Positions 11,471 to 52,262 of a DNA stretch of 64,000 nt are shown here, in pieces. A program made the translations under genes and the position numbers. Each line of letters starts with the position of its first letter. Position 1 is the stretch's first letter. Source of the stretch: Nanohaloarchaea archaeon B1-Br10_U2g21 (GTDB lineage Archaea; Nanohalarchaeota; Nanosalinia; Nanosalinales; Nanosalinaceae); the NCBI GenBank assembly GCA_001563915.1, contig LKMP01000001.1:32001-96000 (forward strand), written 5' to 3'. Below the pieces are notes generated by a model. The model was not told the origin of the DNA. It saw only the letters and a program-made list of their open reading frames with translations, and did not search any database.

Positions 11471-11558
11471 GGTAAAACAACTCGCAAATCTATTGGATGC
11501 TGATGTATTTAAGGATAACCAAACCAATCAAAAAATACGGAGACAGGCCTTTAAACAT

Positions 11559-11632
11559 GGGTTCGTGGTCTAGTTGGTTATGACACCGCCTTGACATGGC
11601 GGAGATCCCCGGTTCGAATCCGGGCGAACCCA
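11559..11632 (+). tRNA. tRNA-Val (GAC)
   Basis: Acceptor GGGTTCG/CGAACCC, anticodon arm CCGCC-TTGACAT-GGCGG, T-loop GGTTCGAATCC; no encoded CCA. Confidence 0.97.
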
Positions 11633-11766
11633 TACCCCTGTGGAAAAAAGAAAAGCTAGTGTAAAAATACTAAGGAATAATATCTTTGTCGATAAAAACA
11701 GGGAAAAAGAAGCGTGATATACCTTGCTTCTAAAAACGTTAGTCACTCAAACAATAATACTGAATA

Positions 11767-11910
11767 GGGAAAGTAGCTCAGGGGTTAGAGCGCTGCGCTC
11801 ATAACAATGATTATGAGCAATGAGGAGGTCTAAAAGCCTTCGATGATTAAAGTTCGTATCGCTTTATGTGAGATACGCAGAGGTCCCGGGTTCGATTCCC
11901 GGCTTTCCCA
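11767..11910 (+). tRNA. tRNA with CAU anticodon (probably elongator Met), 71-nt intron at 37/38 (11804-11874)
   Basis: Acceptor GGGAAAG/CTTTCCC, anticodon stem CTGCG/CGCAG, T-arm CCGGG-TTCGATT-CCCGG; BHB with central helix CTCA/TGAG and bulges TAA and ATA. Confidence 0.93.
11804..11874 (+). ncRNA. Intron-encoded C/D-box-like guide RNA, predicted target C34 of its own tRNA
   Basis: Guide TTATGAGC (11811-11818) is antisense to tRNA nt 31-38; D' ATGA 11820-11823; stem-loop; C' ATGATTA 11843-11849; D GTGA 11868-11871. Confidence 0.7.
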
Positions 11911-12236: not shown

Positions 12237-13904
12237 CTAGCGATGAGTAAAGAAGAAGACATCTTCTGAGTCCTTTCTAGCGAAACCAAAGCGTTCGAAC
12301 TGCACTATTTCCCCTATTTCAAGATTTCCAGGTTCAATAAGACCTTCATAACTTTTTCCGGAAGGCATCTTTATTTCAGCTCTCTCAGAACTTTTTGGAA
12401 CCCAATGGATAAACTCTGCATCGTTCTCCAAGGCTTCCTTGTGGTCACCAAGACTATATGAGGCTTCTCCGTCTTTAATCTCAATATTACACAGACCTTT
12501 CAAGCGGAAAAAACCGTCTTTAAAATCATCTTCCTCAATGAAGATGCTTAACTGTCCGTCCCGAATATTAATTTCAGGGTTTCTGTTCCCTCGCTCGGGG
12601 AATTCAGGATGCACTGGGATCTCTGGCTCTAGATTTTCTGGAACTTCGCTGATGTCTAATTTAACTGGTTTTTTCACATAGAAATGTCTATCGACTTTTT
12701 CATCGAGGGCTCGTGTATTGGCTTTTTCTAGGCCTTCAATTGAAGCCTCCACATCGTTCTCAGTAACTCCCATTTCGATGAAGAACTCTCTGATAGCTCC
12801 TGGTTGGAAGCCTCGACGTCTTAGCGCTCGAAGAGTACCACAGCGAGGATCATCCCACCCTGCCAAGTCACCTTTATCCATTAGTTCTGCTATAGTTGAA
12901 GTCGACATAGGAGCATCAAAACCTGATACTTCTACAGTTCCCCAGTACATGACTTCAGGATAAGACCATCCAAAGTAATCGTAAATATATTTTTGTCGCT
13001 CAGTTGAAGCTCTAAGATCTTTTCCTCTAACAATATGAGTCGTACCCATTAAATGATCTTCAATAGCTCCTTGAAAATCTAAAAGAGGCCATACACAATA
13101 TTTGTTACCCGTAATCGGATGATCGGCGTTTTTAATTATTCTAAATGCTACAAAATCTCTTACAGCAGGGTTTTTATGATCAAGATCGGTCTTAATCTTG
13201 AGAACTGCTTCTCCCTCATCTAACTCACCACGTTTCATCTGCTTCCAGAGATCCATGTTTTCTTCAACTCTCTGAGTTCTATATTCTGAAGCGGTTCCGT
13301 CGCGGCGATGATTTTGCATTTCCTCTTGACTTGCCTTTGAAACATAGGCTTCGCCCATCTCAATAAGTTCCTCAGCGTATCTAATATAAACATCAAAGTT
13401 CTTAGAACTGTATCTTACCTCATCTACTGTGTACCCAAGCCATTCGTAGTCTTCTTGGTACATTTCATACGCTTCTTCCAGAGATCTTTTCGTTACAGGA
13501 TCAGTATCATCATATCTTAGAATTAGCTTTCCATTATACTTATCTCGCAGTTCGCCGTTAACAGTCATTCCTCTTGCATGTCCAAGATGAGGAGGGCCAT
13601 TAGGGTTCGGGGCAAAGCGTAAAATCACATCTCCATTATCGGCGTCCTGCAAATCAGGGATTGGATCGTGTTCCTCCACTTCTTTTTCTTCAAACTCATA
13701 GTTCTTTACTTCTTTTTCTTGTTCTTCTAGACTTAACTGGTTCACCTGTCCACATATCTTGCCTGCTACCTTACCTACTTCTGCCTTGTCGGTAAACTCA
13801 CCTTCTGCGAAAATTTTCCCAATTACTGCTCCGGAATTACATTCTCCTTCATGTTCTACAGCGTTTTTCAATGCATACTTTCTAGCGAGTTCTTCAAGAT
13901 TCAT
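12237..13904 (-). CDS. gltX: Glutamyl-tRNA synthetase (archaeal, non-discriminating)
   Basis: RFAPNPNGPPHLGH, LRYDDTDP, THIVRGKD, GWDDPR and QFERFGF. Confidence 0.97.
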   Translation of the reverse strand: MNLEELARKYALKNAVEHEGECNSGAVIGKIFAEGEFTDKAEVGKVAGKICGQVNQLSLEEQEKEVKNYEFEEKEVEEHDPIPDLQDADNGDVILRFAPNPNGPPHLGHARGMTVNGELRDKYNGKLILRYDDTDPVTKRSLEEAYEMYQEDYEWLGYTVDEVRYSSKNFDVYIRYAEELIEMGEAYVSKASQEEMQNHRRDGTASEYRTQRVEENMDLWKQMKRGELDEGEAVLKIKTDLDHKNPAVRDFVAFRIIKNADHPITGNKYCVWPLLDFQGAIEDHLMGTTHIVRGKDLRASTERQKYIYDYFGWSYPEVMYWGTVEVSGFDAPMSTSTIAELMDKGDLAGWDDPRCGTLRALRRRGFQPGAIREFFIEMGVTENDVEASIEGLEKANTRALDEKVDRHFYVKKPVKLDISEVPENLEPEIPVHPEFPERGNRNPEINIRDGQLSIFIEEDDFKDGFFRLKGLCNIEIKDGEASYSLGDHKEALENDAEFIHWVPKSSERAEIKMPSGKSYEGLIEPGNLEIGEIVQFERFGFARKDSEDVFFFTHR

Positions 13905-51731: not shown

Positions 51732-51810
51732 AGCCTAGAAGTTGATAAGTAGCTTTTTTTACCTGCTTCATATAAAAAAATAGTTTACTACTTCAAGGAT
51801 AGAGAGCTGA

Positions 51811-52044
51811 GGGGGTGTAGCTCAGTTTGGGAGAGCGACCGCCTCCAGTAACTGCAGCCAGTGGTTAACAGTGACTGACATTATCCAAAGTGTCTCTGTT
51901 AGAGCTGACTGATCTGGAGGGATGAGGCATTAAAGCCGATGATTAAACCTTTAGAGACATTCTTAGAATGTCTCGTGATAACTAAACTCTTAGGAGTTTG
52001 TTGGAGATAGCGGTAGGTCGCAGGTTCAAATCCTGTCGCCCCCA
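51811..52044 (+). tRNA. tRNA-Trp (CCA), 160-nt intron at 37/38 (51849-52008)
   Basis: Acceptor GGGGGTG/CGCCCCC, anticodon stem ACCGC/GCGGT, T-loop GGTTCAAATCC; BHB central helix CTCC/GGAG with outer AAC/GTT. Confidence 0.94.
51849..52008 (+). ncRNA. Intron-encoded C/D-box-like guide RNA, predicted target C34 of tRNA-Trp
   Basis: Guide TCTGGAGG 51913-51920; D' ATGA 51922-51925; GGC/GCC stem; C' ATGATTA 51939-51945; D GTGA 51975-51978. Confidence 0.75.
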
Positions 52045-52262
52045 TTTTCTCAGCTTTTTTGAAACTTCAAATTAGGCTGCCAATGTTCTCTCTTGATTTT
52101 GAACAATTTAAGAAGAAAGTTTGAGTCATGTTAGAAGAGGATAGTAAGATATCTTTTCTAGAGGTCTCAAGCATTCTTTAGTGTATTGGGCGTTGTTTTA
52201 GGGTGTAGTAGCTCCAAATTTGGGCCTAATTTTGCGTGAGGTTTTAAAAGATTCTTAAGCAG

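Follow-up and report, generated by a model that had tools for sequence, protein, structure and literature searches.

Does the long intron lodged in the only tRNA-Trp gene of a nanohaloarchaeon simply have to be cut out, or does it do a job of its own? The question is raised by Nanohaloarchaea archaeon B1-Br10_U2g21 (GenBank assembly GCA_001563915.1), whose genome (0.82 Mb, 92% complete) encodes 34 tRNAs as called by ARAGORN with long introns allowed, the tRNA-Trp(CCA) at 51811-52044 being the sole tRNA-Trp among them. Unless a contig or locus is named, coordinates refer to the window, i.e., the whole stretch of 64,000 nucleotides (nt) that was analyzed (contig LKMP01000001.1, positions 32,001 to 96,000, forward strand). 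Self-guiding tRNA-Trp introns are the classic example of an intron with a job, and have been described with two kink turns (K-turns) and two guides. The 160-nt intron presented here is probably a self-targeting methylation guide of the box C/D type, reduced to a single K-turn and accompanied by conserved accessory hairpins.

The guide module and its conservation

The gene and its core module are made up of the following parts.

51811-52044, plus strand: tRNA-Trp(CCA) gene, from direct reading and from ARAGORN with introns allowed
51811..51848, plus strand: exon 1, ending in C32 U33 C34 C35 A36 G37 (direct reading, ARAGORN)
51849..52008, plus strand: intron of 160 nt at the canonical 37/38 position (direct reading; ARAGORN i(39,160))
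51913..51921, plus strand: guide UCUGGAGG plus a G, the guide proper being 51913-51920, with GGAGG invariant in 62/62 introns
51922..51925, plus strand: D'-like box AUGA, the non-bulged strand of K-turn 1, AUGA in 60/62 introns
51926..51937, plus strand: C stem of K-turn 1, GGC/GCC with loop AUUAAA, its three basal pairs formed in 62/62 introns
51938..51945, plus strand: bulge GAU of K-turn 1 and C'-like box GAUUA (AUGAUUA), GAUGAUUA in 54/62 introns
51946..51953, plus strand: short spacer, 8 nt as annotated, too short for a second guide; the end UAGA (51952-51955) overlaps the foot of hairpin X
52000..52008, plus strand: 3' strand of the splice motif, GUU facing AAC 51850-52, GGAG facing C32-C35, and AU forming the 3' bulge with A38
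52009..52044, plus strand: exon 2 (A38 G39 ... A73) (direct reading, ARAGORN)

The original prediction had drawn the intron at 51849..52008, and the same boundaries are obtained by direct reading and by ARAGORN. Neither default ARAGORN nor the Rfam family RF00005 at its gathering score detects the gene, because the intron is 160 nt long; genomes of this kind would be annotated as devoid of tRNA-Trp, which matters for annotation. No credible open reading frame (ORF) covers the region, where just one frame of 48 amino acids (aa) is found, on the opposite strand. The exon-intron junctions form a bulge-helix-bulge: a helix of 4 base pairs (bp), CUCC/GGAG (C32-C35 with 52003-06), is bordered by two 3-nt bulges, AG/U and AU/A (slash at the splice site), and then by outer helices made of the anticodon stem on one side and of AAC 51850-52 with GUU 52000-02 on the other. 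The end of exon 1, CCUCCAG, is unchanged in 62/62 tRNA-Trp genes of relatives.

Within the intron, the antisense element lies directly 5' of the D'-like box. Its positions N+2 to N+8 pair with C31-G37, and N+9 pairs with A38 of the spliced tRNA. G51917 is N+5, five bases 5' of AUGA, and faces C34, exactly as expected from the single-guide module aimed at C34 that had been proposed; the target is found at the fifth pair in all 34 Trp introns tested as well as in the Met introns described below. Behind the guide, the sequence fits K-turn geometry, with a Watson-Crick C stem, a 3-nt bulge GAU, tandem G.A and A.G pairs and a U.U pair. The arrangement is that of an internal C'/D' K-turn with letters off the consensus (A-U for C-G), a U-A box pair standing in the place of the canonical C/D G-C.

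Other parts of a conventional particle were looked for. There is no second guide upstream of a box D, the spacer after the C' box measuring 3-7 nt before hairpin X begins. A terminal box C/box D K-turn closed by a terminal stem was not found, nor is a C box conserved on the 5' side of the guide; the one C-like heptamer (51975-81) is located 3' of the internal motif. A U39 target is missing as well: A38-G39 is present in 62/62 introns and no complementary element for a second guide was seen, which bears out the earlier remark that position 39 is a G and that the classical target is absent. Partial matches to the Rfam families tmRNA and HPnc0260 on the locus correspond to the tRNA-like 3' half, and no family covers the intron.

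How widely is this module shared? In a family set of 37 loci, 34 have a tRNA-Trp intron, the other three being T-arm matches in other families; a pattern scan of metagenomes on the start of exon 2 yielded 39 loci, 36 recoverable genes and 28 new distinct introns. The core module is present in all 62 distinct nanohaloarchaeal tRNA-Trp introns (34/34 from the family and 28/28 from metagenomes), over intron lengths of 55-268 nt. The D'-like box is AUGA in 60 and CCGA in 2, and the C'-like box is GAUGAUUA in 54, AAUGAUUA in 5, UAUGAUUA in 1 and GAUGACGA in 2. The CCGA variants carry GAUGACGA, so that the A-U box pair becomes C-G. In alignment A3, made from those 24 of the 34 introns whose stem-loop is short, 98.3% of the cells of the K-turn stem are paired, 5/5 pairs show compensatory changes and 0/500 shuffles reach the score. 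A covariance model of orthologous introns had been suggested as a check; the one built from A3 gives the window's Trp intron 47.1 bits (E-value 6e-9 over the whole genome) and the K-turn part of the tRNA-Met intron 18.9 bits, the rest of the genome staying at noise. It matches 43/70 genomes of the phylum, which consists of a single order. This model replaced a loose genome-wide search with the expression xUGA-stem-GAU.A, whose 153 matches were mostly coding.

An exact-pattern scan of species genomes returned at least 119 loci, at least 24 of them within a tRNA-Trp intron. Among the matches listed, 19 of 24 intronic ones belong to nanohaloarchaeal or otherwise archaeal records, and the other 5 to records titled Woesearchaeota, Nanoarchaeota or "uncultured Methanosarcinales", with introns of 40-50 nt. 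The same pattern thus occurs, by pattern match, in some Woesearchaeota and Nanoarchaeota metagenome-assembled genomes (MAGs). In L097, L100, L110, L162 and L164, MAGs titled in this way, no more than 3-6 nt separate the 5' splice site from the start of the guide, which would make a simple hairpin with its target. Matches outside DPANN (12 loci in Methanobrevibacter, Bathyarchaeia, Thorarchaeota and others) were coding or due to chance on inspection.

The module also has a sister in the window.

11767..11910, plus strand: tRNA-Met(CAU) with a 71-nt intron bearing the AUGA-stem-GAUGAUUA module, from direct reading, ARAGORN and the covariance model

As had been noted, the same guide module sits in this CAU intron. 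Here the guide UUAUGAGC pairs with G31-A38, again with C34 at N+5, and GUGA simply belongs to the splice-motif strand facing the anticodon loop. From 30 family loci, 24 tRNA-Met introns were recovered; 24/24 have the module together with a Met-specific guide, UU[A/G]UGAGC, which pairs with G31-A37/38. The genome has seven intron-bearing tRNA calls, one of them a doubtful "tRNA-Stop", and just two, Trp and Met, contain the module. One module with two guides, each matched to the anticodon loop of its own host in the same register, argues for a guide instead of chance complementarity, and this is our strongest argument.

Several further observations concern these introns. In Trp introns L002, L007, L034, L035, L008, L010, L025 and L012, the K-turn stem bears a three-way insert of 50-60 nt, and the same insert is found in tRNA-Met introns L215, L219, L221, L224, L225 and L213. 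A part of it, ...UUGAGAAG-hairpin-CUUCG..., is common to Trp and Met introns, the window having a minimal 3-bp stem at this place; judging from this common part, the sequences suggest that Trp and Met introns exchange segments or share ancestry. The insert was considered as a K-junction and rejected, its linker GA not being conserved. In 12/24 Met introns (L202, L203, L205, L207, L209-L211, L215, L219, L221, L224, L225), the K-turn hairpin insert and the 3' tail share 7-11 nt of perfect complementarity, mostly UUCUGGA/UCCAGAA, the order of the halves being exchanged in L207; another match of at least 6 nt, the thirteenth, in L226, is no better than its own shuffles (45/200). Such complementarity could be a pseudoknot or an in-cis pseudo-target. 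Elsewhere in the genome, the tRNA-Lys(CUU) gene (C22:48151-48286, minus strand) has a 61-nt intron and a tRNA read as Ile(UAU) (C24:18966-19092, plus strand) a 54-nt intron, both without the AUGA/GAUGAUUA module, and a tRNA-Val(GAC) lies at 11558-11633, 130 nt upstream of tRNA-Met(CAU). Two elements read from the sequence border the tRNA-Trp gene.

51770..51781, plus strand: A/T-rich, TATA-like stretch about 30-40 nt 5' of the tRNA, a possible archaeal promoter
52047..52061, plus strand: two T runs directly 3' of the gene, a putative terminator

Accessory hairpins and the heptamer between X and Y

Outside its core, the intron is filled with hairpins.

51849..51867, plus strand: hairpin V, UAACUGC/GUGGUUA with a 5-nt loop, whose first bases double as the AAC arm of the splice motif
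51868..51899, plus strand: hairpin W, with base ACAG/CUGU, an internal loop, apical helix GACAUU/AGUGUC and loop AUCCAA (alignment A2)
51900..51912, plus strand: linker with UGAU and a GCUG arm, largely an insertion (10-column gap in L002, L003 and L005 in A2)
51954..51974, plus strand: hairpin X, GAGACAUUC/GAAUGUCUC with loop UUA (alignment A1)
51975..51983, plus strand: C-box-like heptamer GUGAUAA (+CU), aligned with RUGAUGR of relatives
51984..51999, plus strand: hairpin Y, AAACUC/GAGUUU with loop UUAG (alignment A1)

The 5' side was aligned over 9 sequences (A2; genera g1, g19, g21, g4 and g8, L034 being omitted for an extra insertion of 100 nt) and the 3' side over 11 (A1; genera g1, g19, g21, g18 and g10). 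Hairpin V is 98.4% paired in A2, its two outer pairs covarying (UA/CG/AU and AU/GC), with two G-U pairs in the window. In W, 4/6 pairs of the apical helix (51877-94) are compensatory, and the base ACAG/CUGU is seen by eye in genera g1 and g19. Taken jointly, V and W have 96.6% of their cells paired and 6/13 compensatory pairs. On the other side, 6/8 pairs are compensatory in X and 5/7 in Y, where 100% of the cells are paired; X and Y together reach 92.5% of cells paired and 11/15 compensatory pairs. For each couple, 0/500 shuffles reach the score. On this comparative evidence, V, W, X and Y are not specific to the window and have been maintained through compensatory changes in 5-6 genera.

These hairpins were largely foreseen. 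The three extra ones named in the original prediction are present in the sequence and in the minimum free energy fold of the intron (-46.9 kcal/mol, z -2.84, equaled by 2/200 shuffles), and relatives keep them. The long hairpin among them is upheld in part: the apical helix of W covaries, but the outer CAGC/GCUG arm is specific to the window, rests on the insertion of about 10 nt (~51900-12) and competes with V. The idea that a hairpin had replaced the second guide gives way to a better description, that of a conserved cassette made of hairpin X, the C-like box and hairpin Y. As for internal duplication, GACATT and TGTCTC do occur in both W (51877-82/51891-96) and X (51956-61/51969-74), and GCAUUC/GAAUGC occurs twice in L007; the shared strands are swapped in L002 and L005, and g19 shows no likeness at all. 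The resemblance is real in the window and in L007 but not general, and duplication, gene conversion or selection for cross-pairing between W and X could be its cause. Hairpin W was also considered as a K-turn and discarded, UGAUGG facing no GA on the opposite strand.

The extras could, on the other hand, be functionless, i.e., tolerated and inherited insertions whose stable stems do not disturb splicing. Lengths ranging from 55 to 268 nt around the same core speak for this, as do the 6/34 family introns (55-66 nt) that lack all extra hairpins. Even within the genus of the window, L006 has a 62-nt intron without them, so that the extras are dispensable for core function. Moreover, among the 23/62 introns with 3' tails of at least 55 nt, 18 carry the X-box-Y cassette and 5 another, unrelated two-hairpin tail, making at least two cassette types, and the C-like box is lost in three cassettes. 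Against it stand the compensatory changes just described, motifs kept beyond the needs of pairing (GAUGG...CCAUCUC, CAUUC...GAAUG, UGAUGAU and a UCAG loop), and the recurrence of the X-box-Y cassette in one tRNA-Met intron (L226). We hold functionless extras to be unlikely, with real doubt remaining; the conserved hairpins are candidate elements for coupling methylation to splicing.

What, then, is the heptamer between X and Y? In relatives it reads CUGAUGA, AUGAUGA, GUGAUGA or GUGAUGG, and a box containing UGAU is present in 15/18 X-box-Y cassettes. The hairpins and GUGA had been put forward together as features whose conservation should be checked: the hairpins are kept, and so is GUGA (51975-78), as the start of this C-box-like heptamer and not as a D box. 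The heptamer may make a second K-turn-like GA motif, for which two partners were compared, the counts being our reading of motif tables. Pairing A, possible in about 12/18 cassettes, would use X as C stem and a GA at its 5' foot as D box; this foot is UAGA in the window as well as in L230 and L256, CUGA in L005 and L259, and CCGA in L002 and L007. Its topology becomes canonical once the intron is circular. The cost is a 4-nt bulge and the opening of two Watson-Crick pairs, the GA being paired with a conserved UC inside X. In pairing B, GAU abuts hairpin Y (14/18 cassettes) and can lie opposite the NGA located 3' of Y in the splice strand (G.A, A.G, U.G) with at most a 1-nt bulge (11/18). The neighboring pair varies, being G-C in at least 6 cassettes, G.U in L016 and A-U in the window, where GAUAAC 51977-82 stands opposite GUUGGA 52000-05 with U51983 bulged; one of the constrained folds (fold B) predicts the UAAC/GUUG extension there. 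In Met intron L226 the site is GAUCG/CGUGA, with a canonical U.U.

Pairing B would sequester the splice-motif strand. At somewhat less than even confidence, we prefer the arrangement in which the heptamer pairs with GGA of the 3' splice strand and keeps that strand off the anticodon during methylation. A second L7Ae site in the intron is possible. A bolder proposal would build on both: the heptamer (51975-81) and GGA (52003-05), clamped by Y, would form that second site, so that L7Ae binding would force the methylation fold and its release would license splicing; together with the N-terminal loss of Nop5 described below, this would make a non-canonical, asymmetric C/D particle on a tRNA intron. 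Such a protein-operated switch is speculative, and we consider it rather improbable.

Proteins, fold choice and competing explanations

The proteins expected of a C/D particle are encoded: fibrillarin (215 aa), Nop5 (246 aa) and L7Ae on the same contig upstream of the window, and in the genome an EndA domain within a 173-aa frame as well as RtcB. Gene nop5 lies outside the window, at contig C16 11914-12654 (L032:1408-2148). Its product can be aligned to Sulfolobus Nop5 over residues 130-375 only, and to the Pyrococcus protein over 134-376. Its frames measure 248-284 aa in 24/24 family genomes with a match, with an ORF of 247-255 aa in 14 relatives; in the other families of the order, 14/16 matches are of 297-357 aa, the others being of 258 (G037) and 676 aa (G039). 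The miss of PF08156, the Nop5 N-terminal domain, is uninformative, this model falling below its cut-off even in archaeal control genomes. Upstream of nop5 lies a 123-aa ORF that gives no Pfam match and, by eye, looks unrelated.

Can this short Nop5 still hold fibrillarin? Complex prediction with family alignments places fibrillarin on Nop5 residues 1-16, with a score of 0.75 versus 0.02 for the best control. The mark used is reached by 116/157 solved pairs and by 2/215 mismatched ones, and the runs agree in at least 93% of contacts with a predicted local distance difference test score (pLDDT) of at least 91 for the partner. Since Nop5 and fibrillarin are a textbook pair, this pass may reflect likeness to solved complexes, and binding by this copy is a prediction. 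Between nop5 and the fibrillarin gene lies an unusual non-coding gap of 300 nt (C16 ~12655-12950; L032:2149-2444) without any ORF of at least 50 aa, in which UGAUGA and a GAUCU/AGAUC hairpin are seen; the two genes abut in several relatives, L269, L272 and L273 among them.

With these proteins, the following course of events may be proposed. L7Ae would bind the K-turn of the pre-tRNA, formed by AUGA (51922-25), the GGC/GCC stem and GAU-GAUUA (51938-45), and Nop5 and fibrillarin would then be recruited. The guide of 7-8 nt would pair with C31-G37, allowing fibrillarin to 2'-O-methylate C34 according to the five-base rule. Guide duplex and splice motif both use C32-C35, and guide pairing therefore excludes the bulge-helix-bulge (C32-C35 with GGAG 52003-06), so that a switch of fold would be needed before EndA cuts; RtcB would join the exons and probably circularize the intron. 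A lineage-conserved scaffold flanking the core would be provided by V and W, which separate the guide from the 5' splice site, and by X and Y, which separate the 3' splice site from the K-turn. Constrained pre-tRNA folds come out at -80.8 kcal/mol with the splice motif and -82.2 kcal/mol with the guide, the unconstrained optimum being -85.4 kcal/mol with the guide duplex included. A short cis guide with two near-isoenergetic folds would fit the behavior of euryarchaeal pre-tRNA-Trp as described in PMC4090602 and PMC7994747.

Several facts weigh against a self-targeting guide of this type. The box letters AUGA and AUGAUUA are non-consensus, and none of the Rfam C/D families comes up to its threshold, with 17.6 bits (E-value 7.4) as top score against a gathering score of 75. 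There is one clear K-turn in the intron versus two in the known ribonucleoprotein (RNP), and the conserved guide duplex is just 7 bp, under the usual guide length (7-8 bp in the window, 6-12 bp among relatives). Judging from the alignments, Nop5 is without its N-terminal fibrillarin-binding domain throughout the family, which means that the RNP may be unusual or impaired. As regards folding, the long hairpin is the thermodynamic optimum in the window, preferred over V by about 10 kcal/mol. The second GA motif is no clearer: a regular C stem, taken as one of two strands, is lacking in both pairings, pairing B fails in 3/18 cassettes with splice strand GGGG (L002, L005 and L259) and is absent in 3/18, and L005 and L259 offer the canonical CUGA...CUGAUGA of pairing A, a rival partner. 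Finally, a search of sequencing runs for the locus found it in 12 DNA runs, including salt-lake metagenomes, and in no RNA run.

Some of these points would suit a module that does not guide methylation. It might be an L7Ae-binding and antisense element that governs folding or decides when splicing takes place, e.g., by keeping the anticodon loop and the splice motif covered as long as the tRNA body is immature, or by stabilizing the excised or circular intron for another role. Competition of guide and splice strand for the same exon bases, with folds nearly equal in energy, is in keeping with this, as are the short 7-bp duplex and the Nop5 of the family; in Haloferax volcanii, moreover, the intron of the tRNA-Trp gene is dispensable (PMC4090602). 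A mask, however, would not need a register, and the exact five-base register to C34 is kept in two tRNAs and 86 introns. The fibrillarin gene is also retained, conserved and adjacent to nop5, and the complex model, with the caveat given above, predicts fibrillarin binding through the first 16 residues of Nop5. We therefore regard a non-guiding module as improbable.

A preference for the spliced tRNA had also been put forward. In the window, just as claimed, all 8 guide bases pair with C31-A38 once the tRNA is spliced, compared with 7/8 in the pre-tRNA. The conclusion drawn from it, action on the spliced tRNA, is not supported, the preference not being conserved: of the 34 introns, 6 have their longer run with the precursor and 8 with the spliced form, the remaining 20 showing no difference, and L002, L003 and L005, congeners of the window, do the opposite, with 8 bp to the precursor and 7 bp to the spliced form. 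The outer boxes proposed for a terminal K-turn fare no better. UGAUC (51910-14) lies in the stretch of about 10 nt that is absent from these same three congeners, and the positions aligned to it in 9 sequences do not make up a box (GUGAC, GUAGC, GGAUC, UUUAA and others). A conventional two-K-turn box C/D RNA, its terminal K-turn made of UGAUC and GUGA, acting mainly in trans on spliced tRNA-Trp and with a hairpin in place of its second guide, is thus very improbable: tandem G.A, U.U and C-G pairs between UGAU and GUGA are feasible in principle, and trans action of the Haloferax intron RNP has been published (PMC4090602), but, besides the reversed preference and the unconserved UGAUC, GUGA aligns with the seven-letter C-box consensus, no terminal stem is seen by eye flanking both boxes, and introns of 55-66 nt lack the outer boxes altogether.

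Comparison with known systems

A self-targeting guide with one K-turn is close to what has been described in Euryarchaeota. The tRNA-Trp intron of H. volcanii nests a box C/D RNA that guides modification of C34 and U39, according to PMC4090602 and PMC7994747. Compared with the Trp intron guide of Haloferax and Pyrococcus (sR50), the one presented here has the same host gene, the same 37/38 position, a guide beside a D'-type box and C34 at N+5; in both cases, the guide and splice folds are mutually exclusive and the three core proteins are encoded. The differences are just as clear. Theirs has two motifs, C/D and C'/D', and two guides, whereas ours has one clear K-turn, one guide and G39; its boxes are AUGA/AUGAUUA in place of CUGA/UGAUGA, and a true stem stands where theirs has a K-loop.

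For the intron of tRNA-Met, the natural comparison is with sR-tMet of H. volcanii, a stand-alone box C/D RNA responsible for Cm34 in elongator tRNA-Met and acting in trans on the precursor. The target, C34 of elongator tRNA-Met, and the single functional guide are alike, but sR-tMet is a separate gene acting in trans, and our module lies inside the tRNA-Met and tRNA-Trp introns. Another comparison is with Nanoarchaeum equitans, whose elongator tRNA-Met has a 66-nt intron that yields a stable RNA, in which a GC hairpin stands between box D and box C (Randau 2012, PMC3491384). Alike, in the window's Met and Trp introns, are the small DPANN archaeon as host, the one box D, the stable hairpin and the one box C; unlike it, the family studied here adds a defined C34 register, noncanonical boxes and large accessory hairpins. 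A limited literature search found no publication on a nanohaloarchaeal or DPANN tRNA intron guide with one K-turn.

Length sets these introns apart as well. In a 2014 review, archaeal tRNA introns have a median of 65 nt and a range of 11-129 nt (PMC4090602); the long modular form, at 160 nt in the window and as much as 268 nt in relatives, exceeds that range.

There is also an engineered counterpart. In half-mer box C/D RNAs used for crystal structures, one K-turn and one guide suffice for a substrate-bound particle in vitro, as reported in PMC6239191. Those RNAs were made by design, whereas ours is a natural and conserved guide with one K-turn, as predicted: the phylum Nanohaloarchaeota would keep in two of its tRNAs a one-K-turn, one-guide version of the classic intron, i.e., a natural half-mer, which bears on the minimal parts of the C/D particle and on the movement of guides between introns.

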